64,000 nt of DNA from Escherichia coli (GCF_009931435.1 NZ_CP043414.1), one strand, 5' to 3'. Numbered from the stretch's first letter, positions 1 through 59,067 are shown. Numbers and translations are program-made. Notes: generated from the sequence alone by a model not told the origin.

Positions 1-936
1 ACGGTAGATACCGGTGGTTGGCGTATCGCCTGCGTAGCCCCAGGCGCGATACATTCCTTCGGTGTTAAACGGTAGCGCGACGTTACCTTCATGGTCGATA
101 GCGATTAAGCCACCGTTACCACCAAGCGCAGGGAGTTTTTCCATTACTACCCGCTCGCAGGCTTCCGCGAGACTTAATCCGCCGTAATCCATTAACGCGG
201 CGATGTCATATGCCGCCAGCGCGCGGATGAAGACTTCGCCCGTGCCGGTACAAGAAACCGCCACACTGGCGTTATTGGCGTAGCATCCGGCGCCCACTAA
301 GGGACTATCGCCAACTCGTCCGGGTAATTTATTGGTCATTCCGCCTGTGGACGTGGCTGCCGCCAGATTGCCGTCTAAATCCAACGCCACGGCACCCACG
401 GTGCCCATTTTCTGTTTTTCATCCAGTGGCGCACCGCTATGGTCGAGAACCGTTGCCCCTTCCTCGCGCGCTGCCAGGAGTTGTTCATAACGCAAAGGCG
501 TGGAGAAAATCTCCGGCGAGACGCGCTCCATGCCATGAGCAAACGCAAAATTTTCTGCCCCTTCGCCAATCATCATCACATGCGGGCTTTGCTCCATCAC
601 CAGGCGGGCAGCAAGAACCGGATTACGCAGATGACTCACGCCCGCCACCGCACCGGCTTTCAGGGTGTTACCATCCATCACACAGGCGTCGAGTTCATGC
701 GTTTCATCTCGCGTAAAGACTGCGCCAATTCCGGCGTTAAACAGTGGACACTCTTCCAGCAGACGCACCGTTTCCGTCACCACATCCAGCGCACTTTCGC
801 CCGCTTCCAGCATTTTCTGCCCGGTTTCAACAATGGCAGACAACGCCTCAATGTAGCGTAATTCCTGTTGCAGACTCATCTGCGCGCGGCTAATTGCACC
901 TGCGCCACCATGAATTGCAATGACTGCTTTGCCCAT
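1..936 (-). CDS. iaaA: Isoaspartyl dipeptidase/L-asparaginase IaaA, partial (C-terminal codons lie beyond window start)
   Basis: Minus-strand translation from ATG at 934-936 reads MGKAVIAIHGGAGAISRAQMSLQQELRYIEAL...; frame open to position 1 (...TTGIYR). Absent from ORF track because no stop in window. Recognised from memory as E. coli IaaA. Confidence 0.85.
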   Translation of the reverse strand, partial: MGKAVIAIHGGAGAISRAQMSLQQELRYIEALSAIVETGQKMLEAGESALDVVTETVRLLEECPLFNAGIGAVFTRDETHELDACVMDGNTLKAGAVAGVSHLRNPVLAARLVMEQSPHVMMIGEGAENFAFAHGMERVSPEIFSTPLRYEQLLAAREEGATVLDHSGAPLDEKQKMGTVGAVALDLDGNLAAATSTGGMTNKLPGRVGDSPLVGAGCYANNASVAVSCTGTGEVFIRALAAYDIAALMDYGGLSLAEACERVVMEKLPALGGNGGLIAIDHEGNVALPFNTEGMYRAWGYAGDTPTTGIYR

Positions 937-1139
937 AGTATTCGTCCATTAAGGATGGCTCGCCACTTTTGCTATAAATATCAGAATTTTTATGAATTAC
1001 TCATTCAATTTTTGAATATAGAAAGATGGATATGGCATGTAAAGGCAGGAGCCAGCGCTACGCCCGAGGTGGCATACAGTCTGTGGCGTTTTTCTGACAT
1101 AATAGGCAAATTCGATTTTGCCTCCGCAGGAGTGTTTTC

Positions 1140-2375
1140 ATGGAATTTACCACCGGATTGATGTCGCTCGACACCGCGCTTAATGAGATGCTTTCTCGCG
1201 TTACCCCACTGACCGCCCAGGAAACGCTGCCACTGGTACAGTGTTTTGGTCGTATTCTGGCGAGCGATGTCGTTTCGCCACTGGATGTCCCGGGGTTTGA
1301 TAACTCCGCTATGGACGGCTACGCGGTGCGTTTAGCCGATATCGCCTCCGGGCAACCGCTGCCCGTTGCCGGTAAATCCTTTGCCGGTCAGCCGTACCAT
1401 GGTGAATGGCCTGCGGGTACCTGCATTCGTATTATGACCGGTGCGCCGGTGCCGGAAGGCTGCGAAGCGGTGGTGATGCAGGAACAGACCGAACAGACTG
1501 ACGCTGGCGTGCGTTTTACTGCTGAAGTGCGTAGCGGGCAAAATATTCGCCGTCGCGGTGAAGATATCTCTGCGGGTGCGGTTGTTTTCCCAGCGGGAAC
1601 ACGCCTGACTACCGCAGAGCTGCCAGTAATTGCTTCACTGGGGATTGCCGAAGTTCCGGTGATTCGTAAAGTGCGTGTAGCGCTGTTTTCTACCGGTGAT
1701 GAACTCCAGTTGCCAGGCCAGCCACTGGGCGACGGCCAAATCTACGATACCAACCGTCTCGCCGTACACCTGATGTTAGAACAGCTGGGATGCGAGGTAA
1801 TCAACTTAGGGATTATCCGCGACGATCCCCATGCCCTGCGCGCCGCTTTTATTGAAGCCGATAGCCAGGCAGATGTGGTGATCAGTTCCGGCGGTGTTTC
1901 AGTGGGTGAAGCGGATTACACCAAAACCATTCTTGAAGAGCTGGGGGAGATCGCCTTCTGGAAGCTGGCGATTAAACCAGGTAAACCGTTCGCGTTCGGT
2001 AAACTCAGCAATAGCTGGTTCTGCGGCCTGCCGGGTAATCCGGTTTCAGCAACGCTGACCTTCTATCAACTGGTACAGCCGTTACTGGCAAAATTGAGCG
2101 GCAACACCGCCAGCGGCCTGCCAGCGCGTCAGCGCGTACGCACGGCTTCTCGCCTCAAGAAAACGCCTGGTCGCCTTGATTTCCAACGTGGTGTGCTGCA
2201 ACGTAATGCTGACGGTGAACTGGAAGTCACCACCACCGGGCATCAGGGCTCACATATATTTAGCTCTTTTAGCCTCGGCAACTGCTTTATCGTACTGGAA
2301 CGCGAGCGCGGCAATGTAGAAGCGGGCGAATGGGTGGAAGTAGAACCGTTTAACGCGTTATTCGGAGGCCTGTAA
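1140..2375 (+). CDS. moeA: Molybdopterin molybdenumtransferase MoeA
   Basis: ORF track 411 aa [18 protein letters not shown]...; recognised MoeA; followed directly by moeB. Confidence 0.9.
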
Positions 2376-3124
2376 TGGCGGAACTCAGCGATCAGGAGAT
2401 GCTGCGCTACAACCGGCAAATCATTCTGCGCGGTTTTGATTTTGACGGTCAGGAGGCGCTAAAAGATTCTCGTGTGCTGATCGTCGGCCTCGGTGGACTC
2501 GGCTGTGCAGCTTCGCAGTATCTGGCAAGCTCCGGTGTCGGCAACCTGACGCTGCTCGACTTCGACACGGTTTCGCTCTCGAATCTGCAACGCCAGACTC
2601 TGCACAGTGATGCCACGGTCGGGCAACCGAAGGTGGAATCCGCCCGAGACGCACTGGCGCGGATCAATCCACATATCGCGATTACGCCGGTAAATGCGTT
2701 GCTTGATGACGTGGAGCTTGCTGCATTGATCGCTGAACACAATCTGGTGCTCGACTGCACGGATAACGTTGCGGTACGTAATCAATTGAACGCTGGCTGT
2801 TTTGCCGCAAAGGTGCCGCTGGTTTCCGGGGCGGCAATTCGTATGGAAGGACAAATCACGGTCTTCACTTATCAGGACGGCGAACCGTGCTACCGCTGCC
2901 TTAGCCGTTTGTTTGGCGAGAACGCGCTAACCTGCGTAGAAGCAGGCGTGATGGCACCGTTGATCGGCGTAATTGGTTCGTTGCAGGCAATGGAGGCGAT
3001 CAAACTGCTGGCAGGTTATGGCAAACCGGCCAGCGGGAAAATCGTCATGTACGATGCGATGACCTGCCAGTTTCGCGAAATGAAACTGATGCGTAACCCG
3101 GGGTGTGAGGTGTGCGGGCAGTAA
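2375..3124 (+). CDS. moeB: Molybdopterin-synthase adenylyltransferase MoeB (ThiF/E1-like)
   Basis: 249 aa, GLGGLG nucleotide-binding motif and C-terminal CxxC pairs; start overlaps moeA stop. Confidence 0.9.
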   Translation: MAELSDQEMLRYNRQIILRGFDFDGQEALKDSRVLIVGLGGLGCAASQYLASSGVGNLTLLDFDTVSLSNLQRQTLHSDATVGQPKVESARDALARINPHIAITPVNALLDDVELAALIAEHNLVLDCTDNVAVRNQLNAGCFAAKVPLVSGAAIRMEGQITVFTYQDGEPCYRCLSRLFGENALTCVEAGVMAPLIGVIGSLQAMEAIKLLAGYGKPASGKIVMYDAMTCQFREMKLMRNPGCEVCGQ

Positions 3125-3135
3125 TTGCCAGCCCC

Positions 3136-3215
3136 AGGCCTGATAAGTTGCGACAAGCGTCGCATCAGGCATTTGCTCCAGACGCCAGATGCGGCGTGAA
3201 CGCCTTATCTGGCCT
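3136..3215. repeat. REP/BIME-type palindromic intergenic repeat
   Basis: gcctgataag...gcatcaggc and gatgcggcgtgaacgccttatctggcctac motifs typical of enterobacterial REP units. Confidence 0.6.
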
Positions 3216-3302
3216 ACGGTTCGGGCGCAGATTTCCAGGCGCGGCAAGCGTTGGTGCACTCCACCACGTTATCAGCAATTGATGAGGATGCAGAACGTCC
3301 TG

Positions 3303-3965
3303 TTAAATCGACGTTCTGCCAAAAGCCCCCTGCCAGTCCTGCTCAAACTTCGCCACGGCGGCGTCAACTGCCGGATAGCTAATCATCTGCTGCGCCACAT
3401 CCAGTGGCAGAGTAATTGATTCACATCCTGCCAGTAAGCAGTCCAGCGCCTGACGCGGGGTTTTAAAACTCGCGGCTAACACTTTCGCCTGCGGCGCATG
3501 CATTTTCAATAACTGGTGTAAATCGGTCACAGTTTGCATACCGCTACCGCCCTGAGCATCAATTCGGTTGACGTAAGGTGCAACGTACTCCGCACCTGCC
3601 AGCGCCGACAGCAGCCCTTGTGCCGCGCCATACACTGCCGTACCCAGCGTCGGAATACCTTCTGCTTTTAACATTTTAATAGCAGCCAGCCCCTCGGCAG
3701 TCACCGGAACTTTCACCACGATATCTGCAATAATAGAACGCAGTTTACGTGCATCATTCACCATCCCTTCGGCAGTGGTAGCCATTACCTGGGCAAACAG
3801 ACGCCCCTGACCGCCCATCGCTTCGTGAAGCTCCGGAAGTACCACCTCCAGCGGTTTTTTACCCGCGGCGATAATACTTGGGTTAGTGGTCACACCCGCC
3901 AGCGGAAAAATACGTGACAGTGTCTTCACCGCAACAACGTCTGAAGTATCCAGATACAGTTCCAT
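3303..3965 (-). CDS. fsaA: Fructose-6-phosphate aldolase 1
   Basis: Track ORF 3303-4037; start placed at internal ATG 3963-3965 giving [14 protein letters not shown]... (220 aa), matching FsaA/transaldolase-like fold from memory. Confidence 0.85.
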
Positions 3966-4068
3966 AACCATCCTCAAAATGTACTTTTTGTCTGAATGTA
4001 GACTATCACGGGAAAACTCTCTGAACAGTTGACGCACATCAATCTAACTTTCATTCGAAAGTATTTTA

Positions 4069-4995
4069 ATGTTTGAACGAAACAGAGAGGCAACTATGAT
4101 TTTCAATATTCAGCGCTACTCGACCCATGACGGCCCCGGTATCCGCACGGTCGTTTTTCTTAAAGGCTGTTCACTGGGCTGCCGCTGGTGTCAGAACCCG
4201 GAAAGCCGCGCCCGCACGCAGGATCTTCTGTATGACGCACGTCTGTGTCTGGAAGGCTGCGAGCTGTGCGCTAAGACCGCGCCGGAAGTGATTGAGCGCG
4301 CGCTGAATGGTTTGCTTATTCATCGGGAAAAGTTAACCCCGGAGCATCTGACGGCGTTAACCGACTGCTGCCCGACACAGGCGTTAACCGTGTGTGGTGA
4401 AGTGAAAAGCGTTGAGGAGATCATGGCGACCGTTCTGCGCGACAAACCGTTTTACGATCGCAGCGGCGGCGGCTTAACGCTTTCCGGTGGTGAGCCGTTT
4501 ATGCAGCCGGAAATGGCGATGGGGCTACTGCAAACCAGCCACGAAGCCGGTATTCATACTGCGGTAGAAACCTGTCTGCATGTGCCGTGGAAATACATCG
4601 CCCCTTCTCTGCCGTATATCGATCTGTTTCTTGCCGATTTAAAACACGTTGCCGACGTGCCGTTTAAACAGTGGACCGACGGTAACGCCGCCAGAGTGCT
4701 GGATAACCTGAAAAAACTCGCAGCGGCGGGGAAAAAAATCATCATCCGCGTGCCGTTGATTCAGGGCTTTAATGCCGATGAAACCTCTGTGAAAGCCATT
4801 ACCGATTTTGCCGCCGACGAGCTGCACGTCGGCGAAATTCATTTCCTGCCCTACCACACGCTGGGCATCAACAAATATCACTTACTTAATCTGCCCTATG
4901 ACGCCCCGGAAAAACCGCTTGATGCGCCAGAACTGCTCGACTTTGCCCTGCAGTATGCCTGCCAGAAAGGGTTAACCGCGACCTTACGAGGATAA
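4069..4995 (+). CDS. ybiY: Glycyl-radical enzyme activating protein (radical SAM, PflE/YbiY-like)
   Basis: 308-aa ORF with CxxxCxxC radical-SAM cluster (CSLGCRWC); alternative start ATG 4096 has better RBS (gagagg). Confidence 0.85.
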
Positions 4996-5000
4996 CAACC

Positions 5001-7433
5001 ATGACCACACTGAAACTGGACACGCTCAGCGACCGCATTAAAGCGCACAAAAATGCGCTGGTGAATATTGTGAAACCGCCGGTCTGTACCGAGCGCGCGC
5101 AGCACTATACCGAGATGTATCAACAACATCTCGATAAGCCGATCCCGGTACGTCGCGCTCTGGCGCTGGCCCATCACCTGGCGAATCGCACTATTTGGAT
5201 CAAGCACGATGAGTTGATCATCGGCAACCAGGCAAGCAAAGTTCGCGCCGCGCCGATCTTCCCGGAATATACCGTCTCCTGGATCGAAAAAGAGATTGAT
5301 GATCTGGCGGATCGTCCGGGTGCAGGTTTTGCGGTGAGCGAAGAGAACAAACGCGTTCTGCATGAAGTGTGCCCGTGGTGGCGCGGTCAGACGGTACAGG
5401 ATCGCTGCTATGGCATGTTTACCGATGAGCAAAAAGGCCTGCTGGCGACCGGTATCATTAAAGCGGAAGGTAATATGACCTCCGGCGATGCGCACCTGGC
5501 GGTCAATTTCCCACTGTTGCTGGAAAAAGGGCTTGATGGTTTGCGCGAGAAAGTGGCGGAGCGCCGCTCGCGTATTAACCTGACCGTGCTGGAAGATCTG
5601 CACGGCGAGCAGTTCCTGAAAGCGATTGATATCGTGCTGGTGGCGGTCAGTGAACATATTGAACGTTTCGCTGCCCTGGCGCGTGAAATGGCCGTTACCG
5701 AACCCCGCGAAAGCCGTCGCGATGAACTGCTGGCGATGGCCGAAAACTGCGACCTTATCGCCCACCAGCCGCCGCAGACTTTCTGGCAGGCGCTGCAACT
5801 GTGCTACTTCATCCAGTTGATTTTGCAGATCGAATCCAACGGACACTCGGTATCGTTTGGTCGTATGGACCAGTATCTCTACCCGTACTATCGCCGCGAC
5901 GTTGAACTGAACCAGACGCTGGATCGCGAACACGCCATCGAGATGCTGCATAGCTGCTGGCTGAAACTGCTGGAAGTGAACAAGATCCGCTCCGGCTCGC
6001 ACTCAAAAGCCTCTGCGGGAAGTCCGCTGTATCAGAACGTCACCATTGGCGGGCAAAATCTGGTTGATGGTCAGCCGATGGACGCGGTGAATCCACTCTC
6101 TTACGCGATCCTTGAATCCTGCGGTCGCCTGCGTTCGACGCAGCCTAACCTCAGCGTGCGCTACCACGCGGGAATGAGTAACGATTTCCTCGATGCCTGC
6201 GTACAGGTGATTCGCTGCGGCTTCGGGATGCCCGCGTTCAACAACGACGAAATCGTCATCCCGGAATTTATTAAACTCGGTATTGAACCGCAGGACGCTT
6301 ACGACTACGCGGCGATTGGCTGTATCGAAACCGCCGTCGGTGGCAAATGGGGCTATCGCTGCACCGGGATGAGCTTTATCAACTTCGCCCGCGTGATGCT
6401 GGCGGCGCTGGAAGGCGGTCGTGATGCCACCAGCGGCAAAGTGTTCCTGCCACAAGAAAAAGCGTTGTCAGCGGGTAACTTCAACAACTTCGATGAAGTG
6501 ATGGACGCGTGGGACACGCAAATCCGTTATTACACCCGTAAATCAATCGAAATCGAATATGTCGTCGACACCATGCTGGAAGAGAACGTGCACGATATTC
6601 TCTGCTCGGCGCTGGTGGATGACTGCATTGAGCGAGCGAAAAGTATCAAGCAAGGCGGCGCGAAATATGACTGGGTATCGGGCCTGCAGGTCGGCATTGC
6701 TAACCTCGGCAACAGCCTGGCGGCAGTGAAGAAACTGGTGTTTGAACAGGGCGCGATTGGTCAGCAACAACTGGCTGCCGCACTGGCGGATGACTTCGAC
6801 GGCCTGACGCACGAGCAGCTGCGTCAGCGGCTGATTAACGGCGCGCCGAAGTACGGCAACGACGATGATACTGTCGATACGCTGCTGGCTCGCGCTTATC
6901 AGACCTATATCGACGAACTGAAGCAGTACCATAATCCGCGCTACGGTCGTGGTCCGATTGGCGGCAACTATTACGCGGGTACGTCGTCTATCTCCGCTAA
7001 CGTACCGTTTGGCGCGCAAACTATGGCAACGCCGGACGGGCGTAAAGCCCACACCCCGCTGGCAGAAGGCGCAAGCCCGGCTTCCGGTACTGATCATCTT
7101 GGCCCTACTGCGGTCATTGGCTCGGTGGGTAAACTGCCTACGGCAGCGATTCTCGGCGGCGTGTTGCTCAACCAGAAACTGAATCCGGCAACGCTGGAGA
7201 ACGAATCTGACAAGCAGAAACTGATGATCCTGCTACGTACCTTCTTTGAGGTGCATAAAGGCTGGCATATTCAGTACAACATCGTTTCCCGCGAAACGCT
7301 GCTGGAAGCGAAAAAGCATCCGGATCAGTACCGCGATCTGGTGGTGCGCGTAGCGGGTTATTCCGCCTTCTTCACTGCGCTCTCTCCAGACGCACAGGAC
7401 GATATCATCGCCCGTACTGAACATATGCTGTAA
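5001..7433 (+). CDS. ybiW: Glycyl radical enzyme (PFL-like) YbiW
   Basis: 810 aa; C-terminal glycyl-radical motif region (VRVAGYSAFF); paired with upstream activase. Confidence 0.9.
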   Translation: MTTLKLDTLSDRIKAHKNALVNIVKPPVCTERAQHYTEMYQQHLDKPIPVRRALALAHHLANRTIWIKHDELIIGNQASKVRAAPIFPEYTVSWIEKEIDDLADRPGAGFAVSEENKRVLHEVCPWWRGQTVQDRCYGMFTDEQKGLLATGIIKAEGNMTSGDAHLAVNFPLLLEKGLDGLREKVAERRSRINLTVLEDLHGEQFLKAIDIVLVAVSEHIERFAALAREMAVTEPRESRRDELLAMAENCDLIAHQPPQTFWQALQLCYFIQLILQIESNGHSVSFGRMDQYLYPYYRRDVELNQTLDREHAIEMLHSCWLKLLEVNKIRSGSHSKASAGSPLYQNVTIGGQNLVDGQPMDAVNPLSYAILESCGRLRSTQPNLSVRYHAGMSNDFLDACVQVIRCGFGMPAFNNDEIVIPEFIKLGIEPQDAYDYAAIGCIETAVGGKWGYRCTGMSFINFARVMLAALEGGRDATSGKVFLPQEKALSAGNFNNFDEVMDAWDTQIRYYTRKSIEIEYVVDTMLEENVHDILCSALVDDCIERAKSIKQGGAKYDWVSGLQVGIANLGNSLAAVKKLVFEQGAIGQQQLAAALADDFDGLTHEQLRQRLINGAPKYGNDDDTVDTLLARAYQTYIDELKQYHNPRYGRGPIGGNYYAGTSSISANVPFGAQTMATPDGRKAHTPLAEGASPASGTDHLGPTAVIGSVGKLPTAAILGGVLLNQKLNPATLENESDKQKLMILLRTFFEVHKGWHIQYNIVSRETLLEAKKHPDQYRDLVVRVAGYSAFFTALSPDAQDDIIARTEHML

Positions 7434-7572
7434 TCTCCTTCGCCCGGTAACGGTTGTTGCCGGGCGAAAATACTCATCCCATCGATATTATTTTAATCCG
7501 AAATAAATTTGTGCTCCGCGTCACATTGTCATTACACTGTGGCGGTTTGCATTCATTGTCAGGAGCACATCT

Positions 7573-8388
7573 ATGAGCGTAAAAGTTATCGTCACAGACA
7601 TGGACGGTACTTTTCTGAGCGACGCCAAAACGTACAACAATGAGCGTTTTATGGTGCAATATCAGGAACTTAAAAAGCGCGGCATTGAGTTCGTTGTCGC
7701 CAGCGGTAATCAGTATTACCAGCTTATTTCGTTCTTTCCTGAGCTAAAGGATGAGATCTCTTTTGTCGCGGAAAACGGCGCACTGGTTTACGAACATGGC
7801 AAGCAACTGTTCCACGGCGAACTGACCCGACATGAATCAAGAGTTGTCATTGGTGAACTGCTGAAAGACAAGCAGCTCAATTTTGTTGCCTGCGGTTTGC
7901 AAAGCGCGTATGTCAGTGAGAATGCGCCAGAAGCATTCGTCGCGCTAATGGCAAAACACTACCATCGTCTGAAACCTGTGAAAGATTACCAGGATATTGA
8001 TGATGTACTGTTCAAGTTTTCGCTCAACCTGCCTGACGAACAAATCCCGTTAGTGATCGACAAACTGCATATTACGCTCGATGGCATTATGAAGCCCGTC
8101 ACCAGTGGTTTTGGCTTTATCGACCTGATTATTCCTGGCCTGCATAAAGCGAATGGTATTTCGCGGTTACTGAAACGCTGGGATCTGTCACCGCAAAATG
8201 TGGTAGCGATTGGCGACAGCGGTAACGATGCGGAGATGCTGAAAATGGCGCGTTATTCCTTTGCGATGGGCAATGCTGCGGAAAACATTAAACAAATCTC
8301 CCGTTACGCTACCGATGATAATAATCATGAAGGCGCGCTGAATGTGATTCAGGCGGTGCTGGATAACACCGCTCCTTTCAATAAGTAA
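7573..8388 (+). CDS. ybiV: HAD-family sugar phosphatase YbiV
   Basis: 271 aa, N-terminal DxDGT motif (VTDMDGTFL). Confidence 0.85.
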
Positions 8389-8395
8389 CCTTTTC

Positions 8396-8432
8396 CCGGC
8401 CGGAGCAATCGTTCCGGCATCTCTCTTTTTTG
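8396..8432 (+). terminator. Putative rho-independent terminator after ybiV
   Basis: GC hairpin ccggccggagcaatcgttccggc followed by T-rich run ctctcttttttg. Confidence 0.5.
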
Positions 8433-8539
8433 CTCACTTTGTGCACTTACTCAAGATTTTCATCTTGCGTTAACTTATTTTTAACTTAAAGTATCAATCA
8501 TAACTATTTTCACTTTCGAACGAAAGTTGTGAGGTTGAT

Positions 8540-9799
8540 ATGACTTTTACCTATGAGACACTGCCAACAGATGCGAAAACGGCTATCCGTAAGATGAAAG
8601 CGGAGCTGCGACAACAGATCGGCGATGTACAACAGGTCTTCGATAAACTCTCTGCAAAAATCGAAGCACGTGTAGCAGAAATAGACGCCCTCAAAGGGCA
8701 AGGATTACCGGTTTGGCCGGAAGTCCCATATAGCGACGTTGCAGCAGGTACAGTGAGTGAAGCCACGCGCAATGAAATTAAACGTCGCGGCTGTGCAGTA
8801 ATTAAAGGCCATTTCCCCCGCGAACAGGCACTGGCATGGGATCGCGCAATGCTTGACTATCTTGATGCCAATCATTTTGATGATGTTTATAAAGGTCCCG
8901 GCGACAGCTTCTTTGGATCGCTGGAGGCATCTCGTCCTGAAATCTACCCTATTTACTGGTCGCAGGCACAAATGCAGGCGCGACAAAGTGACAATATGGC
9001 GGCGCTGCAATCTTTCCTTAACCGCCTGTGGAAGTCTGAAAGCAACGGCAGGCAGTGGTTTGATCCCGATATTAGCGTGATCTATCCGGACAGGATCCGC
9101 CGCCGCCCACCAGGCACGACGTCTAAAGGTCTGGGTGCACACACTGATTCTGGGGCGCTGGAACGTTGGTTATTACCCGCTTATCAGCGTGTTTTTGCCC
9201 ATGTTTTCAACGGTAATGTCGACGATTACGATCCGTGGGATGCTGCATACCGTACTGATGTTGAAGAGTACACGGTAGATAACACCACAAAATGTTCGGT
9301 GTTCCGCACTTTTCAAGGCTGGACGGCGCTTTCCGATATGTTACCAGGACAGGGATTATTGCATGTGGTGCCAATCCCGGAAGCGATGGCGTATGTTTTA
9401 TTGCGCCCACTGCTGGATGACGTACCGGACGATGAGTTGTGTGGGGTCGCTCCTGGCAAAGTTCTGCCCATTTCAGAGAGATGGCATCCACTACTGATTA
9501 AAGCACTCACTTCCATTCCAGCTATTACAGCGGGGGATTCCGTCTGGTGGCACTGCGACGTGATCCACTCCGTCGCACCGGTAAATAATCAACAAGGCTG
9601 GGGGAATGTGATGTATATCCCTGCCGCGCCGATGTGTGAGAAAAACCGGGCTTATGCGCATAACGTCAGGAAAGCACTGGAAAAAGGGGCATCACCGGGC
9701 GATTTCCCTCGAGAAGATTATGAAGCAAACTGGGATGGCCGATTTACGCTGGATGATCTGAACATTCACGGTAAGCGCGCGCTGGGCATGGATGTTTGA
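8540..9799 (+). CDS. ybiU: DUF1479-family protein YbiU
   Basis: 419-aa ORF at the syntenic position; identity from recall. Confidence 0.8.
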   Translation: MTFTYETLPTDAKTAIRKMKAELRQQIGDVQQVFDKLSAKIEARVAEIDALKGQGLPVWPEVPYSDVAAGTVSEATRNEIKRRGCAVIKGHFPREQALAWDRAMLDYLDANHFDDVYKGPGDSFFGSLEASRPEIYPIYWSQAQMQARQSDNMAALQSFLNRLWKSESNGRQWFDPDISVIYPDRIRRRPPGTTSKGLGAHTDSGALERWLLPAYQRVFAHVFNGNVDDYDPWDAAYRTDVEEYTVDNTTKCSVFRTFQGWTALSDMLPGQGLLHVVPIPEAMAYVLLRPLLDDVPDDELCGVAPGKVLPISERWHPLLIKALTSIPAITAGDSVWWHCDVIHSVAPVNNQQGWGNVMYIPAAPMCEKNRAYAHNVRKALEKGASPGDFPREDYEANWDGRFTLDDLNIHGKRALGMDV

Positions 9800-9891
9800 G
9801 AGGTGATGGATTAGTAGAAGTGAATTGATGTGAGGTTAAGAAAGCAGGTTCGGTGTTGCTCTGATTGCTGACAAAGTGCGCTTTGTTCATG

Positions 9892-9990
9892 ACGGATGCG
9901 GCGTTAACGCCTTATCCGGTCTACAAAGTCCTGAAAATTCAATATATTGCGATACGCTGTCAGGCCTGATAAGCGTAGCGCATCAGGCAA
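9892..9990. repeat. REP/BIME palindromic repeat cluster
   Basis: gatgcggcgttaacgccttatccggtctac ... caggcctgataagcgtagcgcatcaggc. Confidence 0.6.
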
Positions 9991-10048
9991 TTTTGCATTT
10001 GTCATCAGTTTCAGTAGCCCTGACCCTATCAGGGCTACTGATAATAAC

Positions 10049-13956: not shown

Positions 13957-14420
13957 TTGGCACCGTGTTTCTGGGTAAACAAACGAAAGGCATCCAGCGT
14001 CTCTTCACTAACATGGTGCTCCATGCCTTCCGCGTCGCGACGGGCGATTTCCGGACTGACGCCCAACACCAACAAGAAATTTTCGACTATCTGATGTCGC
14101 TCGCGGCTTTCCTGCGCCAGTTTCTCTCCTTCTGCCGTTAAAAACACGCCACGCCAGGGGATCATTTCAATCAGCCCCATGGTTGCCAGTCGTTTGAGCA
14201 TTTTAGCCACCGTCGGTTGCGAAACGCCCAGACGAGCAGCCATGTCCACCTGACGAGCTTCCCCCACTTCCCTGATCAAGTCAGAAATCAGCTCAACGTA
14301 ATCATCAATAAGCTCGCGCCGGTGTGCCTCTCTGACCTGGCGGAACCCTTCAACGTGCTCTTCCACATTCACTAACTGCGTCACTTTTTTTGCTGTTGGC
14401 GTACCTGCGCGACGACTCAT
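13953..14420 (-). CDS. mntR: Manganese-responsive transcriptional regulator MntR (DtxR family)
   Basis: 155 aa [31 protein letters not shown]...; recognised MntR. Confidence 0.9.
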
Positions 14421-14520
14421 TGTGCTTCCTCATTATGGTGACGCATACATAGCGTTCTCATTTCGTGCGCACATTGTAAACCAGAGTTGCGAAGGTACAA
14501 AAAATTAACGTTTTAGCAAT

Positions 14521-14547
14521 AGCTATATAATATAGCCATTGCTAAAT
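14521..14547. repeat. Left junction repeat with MntR-box-like dyad (candidate attL/target duplication)
   Basis: agctatataatatagccattgctaaat; 22/27 identical to 45328-45354; lies inside larger palindrome tttagcaatagctatat/atatagccattgctaaa (14512-14546). Confidence 0.4.
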
Positions 14548-14824
14548 ACATAAAATCAAATAAAATCATAATGTTAACAAAACAAAAAAAATAATCAATG
14601 TCGCAAAAATGTCTCACAAAACAAAAGCCATAACTTATTTGCTTGTTTTTTTATAGTGTCAGTATTAATCTAGTATATCAAAATGTTATCACTTCAATTA
14701 TTCTCTGCTTAACATTTATTTAAGAAATAATATTTTTAAGCTCTTTAAAAAAACCTTAAATAACGCTGATAGTTTCTTAGGAAAACTTAACGATAGTGGT
14801 AAATTAATCCCAAAGGACTAAAAA

Positions 14825-16060
14825 ATGGTATTAAGTAACTGTATTCAATGTCAGTCATGCAAATTTATATATAGAGTTAGGGTTGGTATTGGGTTTGATA
14901 AATACCAAAGACATTATATGGACTGTTTTGAGTGTAATATTCCTATTGTTTTTGCTATACGAACAGACCCACCAAATGCTTATCTTGAAGCGGAAGAAAA
15001 CTGCCTAATTGTTGAACATAGTACAGACCACAAGGTTGTTAACTTCCATCCGGGATGTGCTTTTAATAAAGATGAGATACATCAGTCACTGATATTCCCA
15101 TCTATTGAATTGACACAAATGATTCATAAACATATGAGGATGCCGAAAGGACAACGCCTTATAAGTGCCTCTCATCAATTTGATATTCCCAACGCCCCCT
15201 CCAAATGGAATTATTTAAAATCAATAATAAAACTTATTAATGAAGGAAAGAAAGACAAAGCTCAGAATACAGCAAAGCTTTATATGCAATCAAGAAATAA
15301 AGAGTTACCTTTGTATAATGAAGATGATAGCTATTCCTCTACATCTCTAATCTATGAGTTTTTAGATTGGCTTTTCTATCCTCGAGTACATGATATAGCC
15401 GATTCCATTAAAAAAACAATTGATGACCTTAAAGAACAAAATTTGTTGGATGATTTTTACGCTTTCTATAAAGAAAATTTAAAATCCGAAAATGAACAAA
15501 GATACATCAATATAATATCAGATTTCATGGCTCGTAGAGATCATTTCGGGCAGTTAATCTATTACGCAAGAATTAACAACGATGCAATAGACGATAAGAT
15601 AATTAGCTCTAAGAACTTCGATAATGTAAGAAATTATTATGGAGATGCTTATGAAAGTCTGACATCTAACATGACTATTTTAGCATGTATTAATAACATC
15701 GTCAGTGGAAGGGCATTCGATCAGTTCAAGCAAATGACATTGAATAAATACATAAAGGATGTAAATAAAGACAGTAAAACAAACCCATTTAAGGACAACC
15801 CTTTATTTAGCGCATTTTGTGAAGATGATTTAGAGTCAGCAATAAGAAATGGTTCTCATCATGCCTCTATATGGCATGACGGAGAGAGTATTCGATATAG
15901 AAGTGGCGGAACTGGCGCAGAAAGAGAAATAAGCTATACAAAATATATTCACCTTTGTAATAAGCTAACTCTTAAAATCGTAAGTTTGTGGTTAATTGAA
16001 CTTCATATCCAACATATTTACGAAAAAGATGATAATAGCTATGCATGGTTTCATCTTTAA
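14825..16060 (+). CDS. Hypothetical 411-aa protein with N-terminal CxxCxxC...CxxC zinc-ribbon-like cluster; orphan cargo, candidate defence/abortive-infection protein
   Basis: ORF track; A/T-rich codon usage, preceded by ~270 bp of extremely A/T-rich DNA; Cys at 6,9,12,34,37; R-x4-H (RNGSHH) near C-terminus; no family recognised. Confidence 0.5.
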   Translation: MVLSNCIQCQSCKFIYRVRVGIGFDKYQRHYMDCFECNIPIVFAIRTDPPNAYLEAEENCLIVEHSTDHKVVNFHPGCAFNKDEIHQSLIFPSIELTQMIHKHMRMPKGQRLISASHQFDIPNAPSKWNYLKSIIKLINEGKKDKAQNTAKLYMQSRNKELPLYNEDDSYSSTSLIYEFLDWLFYPRVHDIADSIKKTIDDLKEQNLLDDFYAFYKENLKSENEQRYINIISDFMARRDHFGQLIYYARINNDAIDDKIISSKNFDNVRNYYGDAYESLTSNMTILACINNIVSGRAFDQFKQMTLNKYIKDVNKDSKTNPFKDNPLFSAFCEDDLESAIRNGSHHASIWHDGESIRYRSGGTGAEREISYTKYIHLCNKLTLKIVSLWLIELHIQHIYEKDDNSYAWFHL

Positions 16061-16081
16061 GTTAAATATTTGATTCACTAA

Positions 16082-16368
16082 TTTTCAGTTTCTACTCACT
16101 CTAATGATTGTACATAGCCCGCACCATTCTTGGTATTGCGGGCTTTCAGCCGTTTATATCACTTAACGCAATTAGATCATGCAACTTTACACAATATGGT
16201 TTTTTCTATTATTTTTCAGTTGGTTGAATGGATTAGCCATCACACAACTGATCTATAAAACTGAAAAACACTGAAATTCTTTTCAATCTTTTCAGTGGCA
16301 GCTCTCCGGCAAACCGCCAACAGTGGCGCAGCCTGACGCTCACGTTTGTAGAAAAATAAAACTGAAAA
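16082..16368. repeat. Non-coding region with repeated TTTTCAG / CTGAAAA heptamers
   Basis: TTTTCAG at about 16082, 16213, 16289; CTGAAAA/CTGAAAT at about 16261, 16271, 16362; between convergent cargo gene and phage tail operon. Confidence 0.4.
16116..16144 (+). terminator. Possible terminator downstream of the 411-aa gene
   Basis: Hairpin agcccgca...tgcgggct followed by ttcagccgtttat (weak T-run). Confidence 0.35.
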
Positions 16369-16555
16369 ATTTTATCGATCCAGAAACCGCAGGCGGGTGC
16401 GGTGTAGTGCCATTTTGGTCTGCGAAAGATTTATTTTGTCAGTGCGTAGTGCCGTCAGCGCAACGTGACAGCACAGATCCTTTTGTGGTGTTACGGGATG
16501 GTGGTCAGAGAAAAAAAGTGCTTAGAATGCTTCTGGTTGCGTGAGAATACAGGTA

Positions 16556-16589: not shown

Positions 16590-16844
16590 CTATTTCATTT
16601 CGTTAAGTGCGTACGCACCTCTATCAGTGAGTGCAAAAAAGCCATCCCTTACGCTGGGTTGAATCAACCCAAACATACGCAATTCACCCAGTATTTGTTC
16701 TGAGCGACTACCAGCACCAGAATGCTTAATTAGTGCAAATTCAGGCTGTGCTTCTTCACTGAGCAAAGTCAATATTTTGACAATGGCGTCACGTTTGCTT
16801 TCATCTGCAATGTCATGGTATGGATTGATGGAACAGGTTACCAT
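16590..16844 (-). CDS. Hypothetical 84-aa protein, possible winged-helix DNA-binding fold
   Basis: ORF track; last gene of tail-operon direction; C-terminal segment GSRSEQILGELRMFGLIQ...FFALTDRGAYAL resembles wHTH regulators. Confidence 0.4.
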   Translation of the reverse strand: MVTCSINPYHDIADESKRDAIVKILTLLSEEAQPEFALIKHSGAGSRSEQILGELRMFGLIQPSVRDGFFALTDRGAYALNEMK

Positions 16845-35756: not shown

Positions 35757-36814
35757 GCAAAAAGAAACGCTTCGTTAAGCGCGACCCGCGCGGCGATAAA
35801 TCAAAAAAGATGAGCATTATCACGTTCGACAAACCGGAACCAGTGCTGACCACCGGCACGGATTACCGTGATATCTGGTATGACAACGCCGCAGATCACT
35901 ACACCCAGCCGATTGACCGGCTGGCGCTGGCGCAACTTATCAACCTTAACGGCCAGCATGGTGGCATCATCCACGCCCGAAAAAATATGATTGTGTCCGA
36001 TTACCTAGGGGGCGGTCTGACGTATGACCAGCTTGAAGCCGCAGCGTTTGACTATACGACCTTCGGAGATATCGCGATTGGCAAAATCCGCAATGGCTGG
36101 GGAGACGTGATCGGGCTGGAGCCTTTACCCGGTCTGTATATCCGCCGCCGTAAACTCAGGGATAACGCAGAAAATGTACCCGGTGATTATGTGGTTCTAC
36201 AGGAAGGAGAGCCGCAAATCTGGCCGCAGGAAGACATTATTTTTATCAAAATGTATGACCCCCAGCAGCACATCTACGGGCTGCCGGATTATATCGGAGG
36301 GGTGCATTCGGCCTTACTGAACAGTGAGGCGGTCATTTTCCGCCGTCGCTACTACCATAACGGCGCCCATACGGGTGGCATCCTGTACACGCGTGACCCC
36401 AGCATGACGGATGAAATGGAAGAAGAGATTGAACAGCAGCTGCGTGACAGCAAAGGGATCGGCAACTTCTCCACCATTCTGGTGAACATTCCAGGCGGGG
36501 ACGGTGACGCCATCAAATTCATTGAAATGGGGGATATCTCTGCAAAAGATGAATTTGCCAACATCAAAAATATCAGTGCGCAGGACATTCTCAACGCTCA
36601 CCGCTTTCCCGCAGGGCTGGCCGGAATTGTCCCGCAGAATACTGCCGGGCTGGGTGATGTTGAAAAGGCTGAAAGGATTTACAAGAAAAGCGAGATAGCG
36701 CCCATTCAGCGCCGGTTTATGACCGCTGTTAACAACGATCCCGAAATACCTGAACGGCTGCATCTTAACTTCGATTTAAGTTACACAGAATCAACGGATA
36801 AGGATGCGGCATGA
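35753..36814 (+). CDS. Portal protein, gpQ-like
   Basis: 353 aa, start overlaps terminase stop; P2-type P-Q arrangement. Confidence 0.75.
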   Translation: MSKKKRFVKRDPRGDKSKKMSIITFDKPEPVLTTGTDYRDIWYDNAADHYTQPIDRLALAQLINLNGQHGGIIHARKNMIVSDYLGGGLTYDQLEAAAFDYTTFGDIAIGKIRNGWGDVIGLEPLPGLYIRRRKLRDNAENVPGDYVVLQEGEPQIWPQEDIIFIKMYDPQQHIYGLPDYIGGVHSALLNSEAVIFRRRYYHNGAHTGGILYTRDPSMTDEMEEEIEQQLRDSKGIGNFSTILVNIPGGDGDAIKFIEMGDISAKDEFANIKNISAQDILNAHRFPAGLAGIVPQNTAGLGDVEKAERIYKKSEIAPIQRRFMTAVNNDPEIPERLHLNFDLSYTESTDKDAA

Positions 36815-36864
36815 GGCGAAAAAGGCTAAAATCCAGGCATCATTTAACAGCTGGAGCATGGAAT

Positions 36865-37134
36865 ATGCGAGTTCTGAAAATCGAATGCCCGGAATGCGGC
36901 TCAAAGGCTGTTATTCGTAAAACAAACCGGAAGCACCGGCAGATTGCGGATATTTACTGCGCATGTTCAGATGTGGAGTGTGGCCATACTTTTGTTATGA
37001 ACCTGACGTTCTCCCACACTCTCAGCCCCAGCGCTAAAACGGGTGATGCGATGGTGCAAAAAATACTGAATGCACTTTCACCCGATCAGCGCCAGATGGC
37101 ATTAGACCTACTGAAAGCGCCCCCCGCCGCCTGA
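36865..37134 (+). CDS. Ogr/Delta-family zinc-finger late-gene transcription activator (C-terminally extended)
   Basis: From ATG 36865: MRVLKIECPECG...YCACSDVECGHTF matches C-x2-C...C-x4-C-x2-TF spacing of Ogr/Delta/186 B. Confidence 0.6.
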   Translation: MRVLKIECPECGSKAVIRKTNRKHRQIADIYCACSDVECGHTFVMNLTFSHTLSPSAKTGDAMVQKILNALSPDQRQMALDLLKAPPAA

Positions 37135-37137
37135 AAT

Positions 37138-37170
37138 GCCCCCATTCTGGGGGCGTTGCCCTTCCTTTTT
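37138..37170 (+). terminator. Rho-independent terminator after ogr-like gene
   Basis: Hairpin gcccccattctgggggc followed by gttgcccttccttttt. Confidence 0.6.
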
Positions 37171-37433
37171 AACCATTTCGCGAACCTCTCCCGCAAGCTC
37201 TCCAATCCAGGCCAAAGCGATTGTTTTCTCTCTCTGGTTACTTTCGTAAACATGGGCAATTTTGGCCAATAACTCAATGCGTTCCAGCTGTGCCGACGCC
37301 TCCAAAAGATCCATTTAGCCCCCACAAGCAATAAATAACTGGATATACATACAGTATACCTTAAAGCACGAATTGTGAAATTTAATTTCCTGTCATCTAC
37401 TGACAAATGAATGCCTTTCACATACTTACACCG

Positions 37434-39458
37434 CTATAACCACCCCGGCCACAGCTCCTGTAATGGCTCGTTTTGAGTCTCTTTAAGCCGTCCGTTGCGG
37501 TAAATCAGAGCGCCCTGACCAAATCTCAAACCACTACCCCGCAGGAGAATAGCTATTTCTTCATCAGAACCATCAAAACCCCGACTGCGTAATTCCAGTT
37601 TTAACCGTCTGCGGGTTCCCCCTTCCGTACAGTTATTGACAGAACTCCAAGGGGCGGCGTTGCCGCCAGAAAAACCCGCCTCCGCTGGCGCTGCGGCCAA
37701 CTTCGCAACCTTCTGCCACTTCACCAGGCGCGTACATACCGCTGAATCTGGAATCAATGGAGAATAGACACCCTGAACGCGCTGCACGTCCTCTGCGTAT
37801 TCATTGCCCTGCTCTGTGATTTCATAAGCCAGACGAACAACCAGATCACGACGGGCAACCAGTGCGCCACCCTGCTCCTGGGTGTATGCCGCCCAGTCCC
37901 CAACATCCGCAGCAGCCAGAACCGCATCCATTCTGCGGTCAGTCAGCACCTGATCACGTAACCGGCGCAACTCGCGCCAGACTGTCACTGGCGCACCGCC
38001 AATCTGCTGAAACTGGCGAATGCGCCAGCGTGAAGCCCATGCAGAAACGGACTTGGCCATATCCCGCAGGTTCTCCCCTGTTTCGTCGTCCTGCTCACCA
38101 TCCAGCGCAAACCCATCAATGTTTTTGGATATGTATTTGGCGATGTAACCCGTAGCCGAACCTTTAGCGGGATCGATGGCTTCAACATGGAAACGTGCCT
38201 TTAGCGCGTTTGGCGTTTGCAGTTCTTCGGAGTCGGTAATTCTGGCGTGATAGCAAAGAATATCGCGCACGGTATCCACATCACCAGGACGCATAAAAAG
38301 CAGCATGTGCCAGTGCGGTGTCCCATCGTGGTGAGGCTCTACCACACGAAAACCAAAAACATGGATACCAGCACGGGAAATAGCGGCGCGGGCTTTCGCC
38401 CATACACCGCATAAGTAACGCTGGGTGTCCTGCGGGGTGCAGCCATCCCACTGTGAAACAAAGCCCCCTTTGCTGTGTACCGCATGGAATCGCGATGGCG
38501 CAGTGATGGTGTAAAACTCACCGGCCAGCCCTTCTTCATTGGCCATATCTTCAAATCCTCTCATTCTTACCATTAGCTCACAGCGACGGATCGCCGGATT
38601 AGCAACGCTGCGGTGCACCATGCTGTCCAGCGCAATACGCAGCCCTTCATCATTCAGCAGGTCAAACTTTTTGAAGAACTCAAGGTTCCGCTTTTTCTGG
38701 TCTATCCATTCGCCCAGGGTTTTACGGGACACATAAGCGCTGGCCGCTTTCTGTACTTGCCCCACTGCAATGGCCATATGCTCACGCTGCATATCCCGCG
38801 CCCGCTTAAGACGCAGATACCACCATTCTGGTGCCATCATGCGGAGGATCCCGGATTCAGCCTTACGCGTTTCCAGTTGCCCGCCATTAGCTTCATGTTC
38901 AGCCCAGTACGGCGGCGGATTGTTCAGCATCAGGGAACACGTGCATAAATGGCGGTAAGACTCCAGCGTACGGCGGCGCAGCTCTGCGGCATCGTCAGTG
39001 CTGCCCACAAACTGATTGGTAAAGTCATACAGTGACTGGGAGATCCAGCCAGATATCTGGCCAGCCAGTTTTTTGAGTTCCGGGCGGTCAAGTGACGGCA
39101 GTCGCTCCAGCGACTTACCGAAAGGAAGATCAAGTGCATCAGCGGCCAGTTTGTAACGTGCAGCCACTTTTCGCAGACGTGGCAATACATTCCCGCCGAT
39201 AGTTTTGCGCAGGAATGTATTGGCACGGCGACGCCCGTCACGACCAGCCAGCAGCTTTTCGTAACGGTTGCCAAAATACCCGGCTAACCAGTCGGGTATT
39301 TCATGCAGGTACTGGGATCGCCATTCATAATCCTGTGGGTTTACAGCCCGCAAACGGCGTTCTGTGATCGTTGCATCTGAAGGAGTGCCAGGCGCAAAGG
39401 TTTCACGCCGCCAGGCATTGACGGCGTGGTGTTGGCCAGGCTCCAGCATATCAACCAC
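37434..39458 (-). CDS. Replication initiation endonuclease (P2 gpA / 186 A family)
   Basis: 674 aa; size and position in early operon downstream of dam. Confidence 0.65.
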   Translation of the reverse strand: MVDMLEPGQHHAVNAWRRETFAPGTPSDATITERRLRAVNPQDYEWRSQYLHEIPDWLAGYFGNRYEKLLAGRDGRRRANTFLRKTIGGNVLPRLRKVAARYKLAADALDLPFGKSLERLPSLDRPELKKLAGQISGWISQSLYDFTNQFVGSTDDAAELRRRTLESYRHLCTCSLMLNNPPPYWAEHEANGGQLETRKAESGILRMMAPEWWYLRLKRARDMQREHMAIAVGQVQKAASAYVSRKTLGEWIDQKKRNLEFFKKFDLLNDEGLRIALDSMVHRSVANPAIRRCELMVRMRGFEDMANEEGLAGEFYTITAPSRFHAVHSKGGFVSQWDGCTPQDTQRYLCGVWAKARAAISRAGIHVFGFRVVEPHHDGTPHWHMLLFMRPGDVDTVRDILCYHARITDSEELQTPNALKARFHVEAIDPAKGSATGYIAKYISKNIDGFALDGEQDDETGENLRDMAKSVSAWASRWRIRQFQQIGGAPVTVWRELRRLRDQVLTDRRMDAVLAAADVGDWAAYTQEQGGALVARRDLVVRLAYEITEQGNEYAEDVQRVQGVYSPLIPDSAVCTRLVKWQKVAKLAAAPAEAGFSGGNAAPWSSVNNCTEGGTRRRLKLELRSRGFDGSDEEIAILLRGSGLRFGQGALIYRNGRLKETQNEPLQELWPGWL

Positions 39459-43304: not shown

Positions 43305-44360
43305 ATGAGTGTTCGTAAACTTCCTACTGGCGAATGGATCGCCGACTTCTACACCGTCAACCGCAGCAATGGTAAAAACGGGAAGCGTATACGTAAAAAA
43401 TTTGCCACTAAGGGAGAAGCCCTGGCATTTGAGAATCACACGCTTCAAAAGGTAGATAGTGCGCCGTGGTTAGGTGAAGGGAAAGATAAACGAACATTAA
43501 TCGACCTGATTACAATGTGGTACGAGCGCCACGGCGTTGCCCTACGCAATGGTAAAAAGCGTAAAGACGCAATGACCTGGGCGGCGGAGTGTATGGGTTT
43601 TCCGCTGGCCACTGAGTTTAATGCCCAGCTGTTTACAGCATACCGTGCAAAAAGGCTTGAAGGGCATTATGCCCGTACTAACCGTGTTTCTAAGGTTTCA
43701 CCTAAAACAATGAACCTTGAACACGCATATTTTCTGGCTATGTTCAATGAACTGAAACGGATCGGTGAGTGGTCAGCCCCTAACCCACTGGAGAACGTCA
43801 GACAGTACCGTACAGATGAAACTGAAATGGCATTTCTCACTGCTGAGGAAATTGATCGGCTTTTGCTGGAATGCAAACGCAGTAAAGTAAGTTATTTAGA
43901 GTTAGTCGTAAAAATCTGTCTGGCGACTGGCGCAAGATGGAATGAAGCGGCAACACTCAAAAGTTCCCAGATAGCCGGCGGAAAAGTCACCTTCATAAAA
44001 ACAAAAGGGAAAAGGAACCGTTCCATTCCGTTAGATGATGAACTGCTGGCTGAACTACCCGAAACAAAAGGCGCTCTGTTTCCAAAGCCCTGCTATAACG
44101 CTTTCCGTTCCGCTCTGGAACGTGCTGGCATTGAACTACCAGCAGGTCAGCTTACCCACGTACTACGCCATACATTTGCCAGCCACTTTATGATGAACAG
44201 CGGCAACATTCTGGTTCTCCAAAAAATCCTCGGCCATGCCGATATCACTATGACAATGCGGTATGCGCATTTCGCCCCAAGCCACCTTGAAGACGCTGTG
44301 CGACTTAATCCCTTAAAATGCCGCAGCAGCTTAGAAATACTGTCGAGTACCAAAACATAA
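43305..44360 (+). CDS. int: Tyrosine-type phage integrase
   Basis: 351 aa; C-terminal catalytic region HVLRHTFASH...LGHADITMTMRYAHF (R, HxxR, Y). Confidence 0.85.
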   Translation: MSVRKLPTGEWIADFYTVNRSNGKNGKRIRKKFATKGEALAFENHTLQKVDSAPWLGEGKDKRTLIDLITMWYERHGVALRNGKKRKDAMTWAAECMGFPLATEFNAQLFTAYRAKRLEGHYARTNRVSKVSPKTMNLEHAYFLAMFNELKRIGEWSAPNPLENVRQYRTDETEMAFLTAEEIDRLLLECKRSKVSYLELVVKICLATGARWNEAATLKSSQIAGGKVTFIKTKGKRNRSIPLDDELLAELPETKGALFPKPCYNAFRSALERAGIELPAGQLTHVLRHTFASHFMMNSGNILVLQKILGHADITMTMRYAHFAPSHLEDAVRLNPLKCRSSLEILSSTKT

Positions 44361-59017: not shown

Positions 59018-59067
59018 TTCAGATGTGGGGCGCAGGGCTCACTAATGTTGATGGCGAGAACAGGACT

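Follow-up and report, generated by a model that had tools for sequence, protein, structure and literature searches.

We analysed a window of 64,000 nucleotides (the whole stretch of DNA considered here) from Escherichia coli (GCF_009931435.1, NZ_CP043414.1), in which an HP1/P2-like prophage is inserted between mntR and mntS. The prophage contains P2-family capsid, terminase, baseplate J and tape-measure genes, with the integrase and the CI repressor at its far end. A 12-nt att core (TATAATATAGCC) at 14526-14537 is repeated at 45333-45344; the latter copy is attR and lies 69 nt upstream of mntS (45413-45541). The attL junction is an inverted repeat, a palindrome of 17+17 nt at 14512-14546 (unstranded) that contains the first att core and has host DNA as its left arm and phage DNA as its right arm. 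Close to this junction, at 14825-16060 on the plus strand, is an open reading frame of 411 codons with an ATG start. The tail and baseplate genes, on the minus strand, run convergently towards it, and it is located between those genes and the chromosomal junction, a position that had been proposed from the sequence alone and that the repeated att core bears out.

The start codon is preceded by an AAGGA Shine-Dalgarno sequence, read from the sequence at 14811-14815, for which the distance to the ATG is given as seven bases. Because an open frame of this length is so improbable in DNA so rich in A and T (an arithmetic estimate gives a chance of ~1e-14 for 411 codons at ~33% GC), the frame is not a chance event, and because full-length homologues at 20-78% identity also exist, it is a real gene, as the sequence-only reading had claimed for the same frame and start. 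The product is identical to WP_088445653.1 (annotated as 'hypothetical protein') and is abundant in Ile, Ser, Asp, Leu, Asn, Lys and Tyr. The GC content is 23% in the leader (14538-14824, plus strand, 287 nt), 32.6% in the frame and 34.5% in the 194 nt that follow it, compared to 51.4% in the prophage backbone and 50.8% in the whole window, which agrees with the description of the gene as A/T-rich and dissimilar to the phage genes. The leader had been called 'A/T-rich promoter-like' DNA, of which the first part stands, whereas the second is unproven because promoter hexamers are no commoner in it than in shuffled sequence (11 sigma-70-like sites vs. 10.7 expected, not above chance). Scans of the leader for open reading frames of at least 20 aa, tandem repeats and Rfam families yielded none. 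On the 3' side, the segment 16061-16254 (plus strand), whose boundary comes from the alignment with a sister prophage, contains no partner gene, all of its open reading frames being at most 31 aa long. It includes a perfect 8-bp hairpin, in which AGCCCGCA (16116-16123) pairs with TGCGGGCT (16137-16144); this hairpin may be a terminator, although the terminator scan did not flag it.

A swap-prone cargo slot at the attL end

In the alignment with a sister prophage, homology ends at 14537 and starts again at 16255, from which we define the cargo cassette as 14538-16254 (~1.7 kb), directly abutting the att core. The closest complete genome, E. coli MFDS1016424 (NZ_CP106924.1), is 100% identical over 14400-16400 and 99.1% identical across the prophage, and its flanking regions differ. 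The backbone end next to the slot was found in only 7 of 5,426 complete E. coli genomes. Within the backbone family, which includes one more divergent relative, each slot holds one of five cargos: the 411-aa zinc-ribbon/HEPN gene described here (one genome), a 345-aa protein that matches the PADLOC candidate PDC-S64, a 578-aa AIPR protein that matches AbiU, a set of three small genes of which one encodes a DUF6338 protein, or a gene of conversion type for a serine acetyltransferase, the last being the cargo of the more divergent relative. Since five alternative cargos occur at the same place, the slot is a real swap-prone accessory locus, and 2 of the 4 alternatives to the 411-aa gene are of defence type. 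The suggestion that variable cargo would be found here is thus supported, with the AbiU-like AIPR protein and PDC-S64 among the replacements of the cassette. The inner edge of the slot is formed by an 84-aa gene at 16590-16844 on the minus strand (WP_000255618.1), which flanks different cargos and is therefore backbone, not cargo; it has no PADLOC match.

Accessory hotspots described in P2-like phages lie between gpA and the portal gene, between integrase and att, between integrase and primase, within the late genes and downstream of gpL (PMC9122126; bioRxiv 10.64898/2026.02.27.708500), the cos-proximal hotspot being the interval between gpA and the portal gene gpQ (Rousset et al. 2022, PMC9122126). 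The gpA-portal interval of the prophage examined here (36811-37434) contains only an ogr-like gene, and the 411-aa gene is found instead between the baseplate genes and attL. The earlier comparison of its location to those of the P2 genes old, tin and fun/Z does not hold, as old and tin lie between gpA and gpQ, and fun/Z within the tail genes, and the slot matches none of these positions. The P2 and P4 hotspots, which receive diverse anti-phage systems, resemble the slot in being short swap-prone loci with conserved phage genes on either side, and a relative of the 411-aa gene in a P4-like satellite adjoins Gabija and an integrase. The slot differs from the P2 hotspots in being bounded on one side by the last baseplate genes and on the other by the att site that lies opposite the integrase, in an HP1-like relative.

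Domain architecture and conserved residues

We aligned 79 family members that share 20-78% identity (29% mean column identity). Eleven columns are invariant across the 79 sequences: C9, C12, C34, C37, E277, N291, R296, R341, N342, H346 and Y374. An AlphaFold model built from this alignment (pLDDT 90.5, pTM 0.91) divides the protein into three parts. The first is a beta-rich N-terminal domain (residues 1-74; 14825-15046, plus strand) with a CxxC...CxxC arrangement of C9, C12, C34 and C37, whose invariance supports the zinc ribbon previously suggested. The Cys cluster originally listed for this domain (C6, C9, C12, C34 and C37) is present in full, but C6 is not conserved, so that the ligands are the other four. 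Weak matches to Cys_rich_CPXG (19 of 79 members) and Zn_ribbon_Elf1 (5 of 79) were found in the alignment, and we propose the zinc ribbon as the sensor or nucleic-acid-binding part of the protein. The second part is a helical middle region (residues 92-204; 15098-15436, plus strand), and the third is a C-terminal HEPN-like domain (residues 205-400; 15437-16024, plus strand). The helices proposed for the latter in the model are H1 (206-236), H2 (271-293, with the invariant E277), followed by an insert, and H3 (ending at 345), after which the chain forms an inserted beta-hairpin (349-370) and finally the long helix H4 (371-400).

Proteins of the HEPN superfamily build a composite active site by dimerization and have metal-independent RNase activity; the acidic motif in helix 2 is typically Ex3[KR] and accompanies a nearby Rx4-6H motif. 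In the published definition, Rx4-6H closes helix 3, its R is followed by a polar residue (in most cases N, D or H), helix 2 carries an acidic residue, and inserts between helices 2 and 3 are frequent (PMC3710099). The modelled C-terminal domain is a four-helix up-down bundle composed of two alpha-hairpins. Its RNGSHH sequence (residues 341-346; codons at 15845-15862, plus strand), which had been noted as a possible HEPN-like motif, holds the invariant R341 and H346 at the end of the helix 338-345, as well as the invariant polar residue N342 directly after the R. The invariant E277, in the helix 271-282, may correspond to the acidic residue of helix 2; the position four residues further is Ser, so the usual Ex3[K/R] form is absent. 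Judged by its sequence, R341-N342-x3-H346 is a canonical HEPN RNase motif and predicted to be catalytic; its location where helix 3 ends and the polar N342 agree with the published definition, to which the acidic residue in helix 2 would also conform.

Structural comparison points in the same direction. A Foldseek search of AFDB50 matched uncharacterised family members over the full length (TM score normalised by the query, TMq, up to 0.95) and, further out, AFDB entries annotated as Cthe-2314-like HEPN (TMq 0.74) and LA2681-like HEPN (0.64), also full-length, together with entries labelled 'ApeA N-terminal domain-containing' (0.69) and SEC-C motif proteins. The Foldseek comparison that had been recommended for this protein thus led to HEPN- and ApeA-annotated entries with full-length matches in the range 0.64-0.74. 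For the catalytic domain, the best structural matches are the HepT/MntA structures 7ae2, 8xdj and 5yep, and HEPN matches persist with a domain model from which the middle region (92-204) is omitted.

Profile searches with the query against PADLOC, NCBIfam, PHROGs and Pfam returned nothing significant, the only Pfam result being Cys_rich_CPXG (E = 0.065), and none of the 79 members reached even E = 0.1 with the Pfam HEPN models. PADLOC and NCBIfam gave nothing relevant for divergent members, sequence-profile searches of the PDB with the full-length and the HEPN-only alignments produced no HEPN match, and hhalign comparison of the HEPN-domain profile to a neighbouring Abi_alpha protein yielded a probability of 0.2%. 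The sequence-only reading had found no named defence family for the protein, and this is upheld in that defence-family models of PADLOC, NCBIfam and Pfam match neither the query nor divergent members; the PADLOC check it had called for gave no family for the query at E up to 1.

Family breadth and genomic contexts

The protein had been labelled an orphan, a label that must be dropped. A word-indexed search identified 176 relatives, nearly all of them full-length (~400 aa), in Enterobacter, Pantoea, Citrobacter, Salmonella, Vibrio, Shewanella, Aeromonas, cyanobacteria and Bacteroidota, among which none is named and none has a Pfam domain. An exhaustive profile search of 1.84 billion representatives (E <= 1e-3) identified 535 clusters at 50% identity, with uniform length and no fusions seen. 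At the other end of the scale, a cluster at >=90% identity covers E. coli and Salmonella enterica, and the identical protein occurs on 137 contigs. The cassette is nucleotide-identical in 8 of the 8 loci examined, in differing host backgrounds, whereas the host flanks differ by ~2%, which indicates recent spread. No paper was found for the seven accession numbers searched.

We examined about fourteen independent genomic contexts of relatives. In P2-like prophages of Enterobacter and of an IMG/VR contig, the slot described here is likewise filled by relatives, which have 70% and 59% identity. Single relatives were found inside a siphovirus tail module (on the opposite strand), in an element that resembles a satellite and carries a primase, among the cargo of a conjugative element from Vibrio, next to an Oscillatoria integrase, and in an island that also contains Fic/Phd and an HTH-M78 gene; four more, from Rhizobium, Ensifer and Novosphingobium, are on plasmids. 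In an HK97-like prophage, a remote member lies on the opposite strand in the interval from the primase gene to the small terminase gene. Defence genes, known or candidate, adjoin several relatives. In a Shewanella P4-like satellite, the gene is directly downstream of GajA and GajB (Gabija) and is followed by the integrase; in a cyanobacterial locus, it is directly upstream of HEC-01A and B; in the cargo region of a Citrobacter/E. coli ICE, it neighbours PDC-S33 and anti-restriction genes; and in an enterobacterial integrase island, its neighbours are PDC-S47 (Abi_alpha) and a SMEK-domain protein. A further remote member is found in an island of restriction-modification type with helicase, methyltransferase, PIN and YhcG genes. 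As a plain count, a PADLOC system or candidate is adjacent in 4 of about 14 contexts, and a fifth relative is in the restriction-modification-type island. Several contexts have no recognisable defence neighbour, and these were counted against a role in defence. Homologues, whose recurrence in prophage end hotspots had been put forward as a check, thus recur in prophage accessory slots, satellites, ICEs and defence islands.

Comparison to known single-protein HEPN systems

ApeA was reportedly described by Gao et al. in 2020 as a single-protein HEPN abortive-infection system. It cuts tRNA anticodon loops upon activation by deoxydinucleotides, assembles into a doughnut-shaped decamer or dodecamer with a ligand pocket, and has a diverged HEPN domain with inserts around helices 3 and 4, whose closest solved relative is HepT (bioRxiv 10.64898/2026.01.26.701840). 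Like ApeA, the 411-aa protein has no partner gene and, as modelled here, joins in a single polypeptide a non-catalytic region at the N-terminus to a split HEPN domain at the C-terminus, and HepT is the top structural match of both HEPN domains. However, it has no match to PADLOC ApeA, Pfam HEPN_Apea or ApeA_NTD1, and PADLOC ApeA likewise matched none of 10 distant members. The proteins also differ in size, as Ec2ApeA reaches at least residue 583, and in their N-terminal parts, which in ApeA are described as catenin-like (N-terminal domain) and PafA-like helical (Mid domain), whereas the 411-aa protein begins with a beta-rich four-Cys zinc ribbon.

HepS, from the Gifsy-1 prophage, is a 'HEPN solo' anticodon nuclease that acts by abortive infection, cutting tRNA upon activation by the tail protein J; its motif is R100-H105, and only homologues of <=250 aa were kept in the study that described it (PMC13043305). 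It shares with the 411-aa protein the status of a prophage accessory gene and of a lone HEPN protein without a partner but is a minimal HEPN protein, with neither a zinc-ribbon nor a middle domain. DARNA (PD-T7-3) cuts tRNA when activated by ssDNA presented by phage SSB (bioRxiv 10.64898/2026.02.22.705581). Its domain order is reversed in comparison to that of the 411-aa protein, the HEPN domain (1-159, with R117-H122) being followed by a Pds5-like helical C-terminal domain; DARNA has no zinc ribbon, and PADLOC assigns the 411-aa protein to no family. DARNA and HepS were both rejected as the family of the 411-aa protein on account of their different architectures. The named families that come nearest are Cthe_2314 and LA2681, two bacterial HEPN families in which an Rx4-6H motif is conserved, Cthe_2314 having no detected fused enzymatic domain (Anantharaman et al. 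2013, PMC3710099). AFDB entries with these two annotations provide the full-length structural matches given above, but there is no Pfam match to HEPN_Cthe2314 (PF18730) or LA2681 in the 79 members, and the link is structural only, at 19-25% identity. Finally, HepT structures are the best matches to the catalytic domain, but HepT/MntA are two-gene systems with an adjacent MNT antitoxin and toxins of ~130-140 aa, and because no MNT gene adjoins the 411-aa gene, identity with such a pair was rejected. By analogy, we conclude that the protein probably resembles ApeA, HepS and DARNA in the way it works; it belongs to none of the three, given the lack of model matches, the different size and domain order, and the zinc-ribbon head.

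Discussion

The gene encodes a member of an unannotated family of probable HEPN type with a proposed sensor module of its own, in a slot outside the described P2 hotspots. The explanation that we favour, with a probability of roughly 0.6 and by analogy to ApeA, HepS and DARNA, is that it is prophage cargo for abortive-infection defence in the form of a single-polypeptide, normally silent HEPN ribonuclease. By the same analogy, two HEPN domains would together build a composite, metal-independent RNase site, occluded at rest, and the zinc ribbon and the middle region, alone or with the HEPN inserts, would detect an infection cue, for which phage proteins, nucleic acids and small molecules are all candidates. 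The activated enzyme would then cut host RNA, most likely tRNA anticodon loops, whereupon translation would stop, the phage cycle would not be completed, and the lysogen population and the resident prophage would be protected. Given that lone HEPN abortive-infection proteins are already a familiar theme, the candidate is plausible rather than startling.

If confirmed, this assignment would add to the one-gene HEPN abortive-infection systems a widespread unannotated family, whose 535 clusters at 50% identity reach from Enterobacteriaceae as far as cyanobacteria and Bacteroidota, and would provide a new sensor module (zinc ribbon plus helical linker) in which the off/on control of a nuclease can be studied. 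The family escapes detection by PADLOC v2, Pfam and NCBIfam, so that the defence inventories of these genomes would be incomplete. The tail-end att junction of HP1/P2-like prophages is a further swap-prone slot that could serve as a source of more systems. A bolder version seems unlikely to us: the protein would be the founder of a new family of immune sensors, each a single HEPN protein, its zinc-ribbon head would recognise a new class of infection signal, and the slot would be an undescribed att-proximal hotspot; the signal would then differ from the deoxydinucleotides sensed by ApeA, the SSB-bound ssDNA sensed by DARNA and the tail protein J sensed by HepS.

A HEPN toxin might instead serve the mobile element itself, through addiction, post-segregational killing or competition between related elements. 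We consider this improbable, as no candidate antitoxin, MNT gene or RNA repeat is adjacent in E. coli or at most other loci. The loci examined have no conserved partner gene in common; a 257-aa gene that follows the Enterobacter relative was considered as an obligate partner and rejected, since neither the window nor any other locus examined contains it. The cassette 14538-16254 has no second gene that could encode an MNT nucleotidyltransferase antitoxin, its remaining open reading frames not exceeding 31 aa. Searches for RNA antitoxins around the gene found as the only tandem repeat 1.9 copies of a 10-nt A/T unit and no Rfam match at E up to 1. The leader shows no conservation between loci, and neither a tandem array nor a structured RNA, by which AbiF-like or type III toxin-antitoxin HEPN systems with an RNA antitoxin are recognised, lies beside the gene. 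Two further observations weigh against a toxin that serves the element: the direct neighbours of relatives include genes from Gabija, HEC-01, PDC-S33 and PDC-S47, and an intact gene is kept where most of the prophage has been deleted (loci L005, L010 and L011), a retention that carries an ascertainment bias, these loci having been located by way of the protein itself.

A second set of alternatives assigns the protein a non-immune benefit to the phage, for example as a nuclease that processes RNA or has a regulatory role within the cycle of the prophage itself, as an anti-defence protein, or as a factor of lysogenic conversion. The presence of a serine acetyltransferase, a conversion-type gene, in the same slot of the more divergent relative and the location of some relatives inside phage structural modules are what could be expected under this assumption. 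Conversely, many relatives reside in non-phage islands, ICEs and plasmids, the gene is dispensable, as shown by sister prophages that do without it, and tblastn found no match among 50,697 phage genome records. The last result was counted against the defence reading as well; it also argues against a function that benefits phages, which we regard as quite unlikely overall.

It is likewise distinctly improbable that the HEPN likeness reflects the shape of a helical bundle only and that the protein is a non-catalytic zinc-ribbon protein with a nucleic-acid-binding or regulatory role. That the gene is horizontally acquired DNA, silent or in decay, which at present has no function in this strain, as its very low GC content and A/T-rich leader, typical of H-NS-silenced DNA, and a promoter signal at the level of chance might suggest, is highly unlikely considering the intact 411-codon frame, the identity of the protein in 137 contigs and of the cassette in 8 loci with different host backgrounds, and the deep conservation of the family.

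The attL palindrome and mntS

The prophage is inserted inside a palindrome upstream of mntS, which we take to be probably the mntS operator, and the insertion rebuilds a better palindrome at attL. Complementarity between the arms (from scores and a hand count) is 16/17 at attL, compared to 11/17 at attR and 13/17 in the reconstructed empty site. The gene mntS is repressed by MntR:Mn (PMC4361602). The cargo gene and mntS share the same orientation. Host promoter or operator elements kept at attL might read into the slot or regulate its cargo. In the bolder version above, which seems unlikely to us, expression of the slot cargo could be tied to the MntR/manganese status of the host because the prophage inserts in the palindrome upstream of mntS and improves it at attL.

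Cargo of the att-proximal slot and of other positions in the prophage

The slot directly inside attL, which holds the HEPN gene in this prophage, is occupied in sister prophages by a gene for a PDC-S64-like protein (L002, 6357-7394), a gene for an AbiU-like AIPR protein (L034, 2020-3756), three small genes, one of which encodes a DUF6338 protein (L035, 2144-3626), and a gene for a serine acetyltransferase (L036, 4300-4839). These varied cargos mark the att-proximal slot as a hotspot, one that is absent from the hotspots given in the papers on P2 (PMC9122126 and bioRxiv 10.64898/2026.02.27.708500). A 170-nt stretch (16256-16425) borders the slot on its inner side, and ATAAAACTGAAAAA occurs there twice without mismatch (16255-16268 and 16356-16369). 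Among complete E. coli genomes, 455 contain a match to this stretch at ~77% identity, ST131 strains among them. The matched DNA is unannotated, and the stretch may be a conserved element, either of the prophage end or regulatory.

Between the integrase gene (43305-44360) and attR, a position that the 2026 preprint describes as a minor P2 defence hotspot, lies a 193-aa ORF (44381-44962, minus strand) that has no match in Pfam or PADLOC and is a candidate for a second orphan cargo gene of the prophage. The classical P2 defence hotspot, flanked by the portal gene and replication gene A, is where old and tin are found in P2; in this phage, the interval (36811-37434) contains only an ogr/Delta-like zinc-finger gene.

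The att palindrome and mntS

The att core, TATAATATAGCC, is part of a palindrome upstream of mntS (14512-14546 and 45320-45360), which is probably the MntR operator. The arms of the palindrome match at 16 of 17 positions in attL, 13 of 17 in the reconstructed empty site and only 11 of 17 in attR, such that attL, thanks to its phage-derived arm, carries a better palindrome than the empty site. The cargo gene is oriented in the same direction as mntS; therefore, the slot may come under host mntS promoter or operator elements, and the regulation of mntS may be changed.

Genomic contexts of homologues

In four Enterobacter loci (L012-L015), the homologous cassette is followed, 43 nt downstream, by a 257-aa gene (L012, 9279-10052) that was not found in any other locus examined. 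Its product had no match in Pfam or PADLOC; by eye, it displays R...STS...ExE-like motifs reminiscent of ADP-ribosyltransferases. A Shewanella P4-like satellite with a Phage_GPA replication gene and an integrase (L030, 4074-9188) encodes a complete Gabija system (GajA and GajB), directly followed by the HEPN gene homologue and then the integrase. In a siphovirus-type viral contig (L039, 8001-10710), the genes for the major tail protein and the tape measure are separated by the homologue and a 274-aa gene, both on the opposite strand; this is an unusual site for a moron-like insertion.

Host flanks

Window positions 1-10000 and 59000-64000 were compared to the closest record (E. coli MFDS1016424, NZ_CP106924.1), which contains an IS621 copy beside ybiT that is missing from the window. 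For the ybiY-ybiU block of the window, identity to this record is only 89%, against 98.5% to other strains, and two divergent alleles of the block therefore appear to exist within E. coli.
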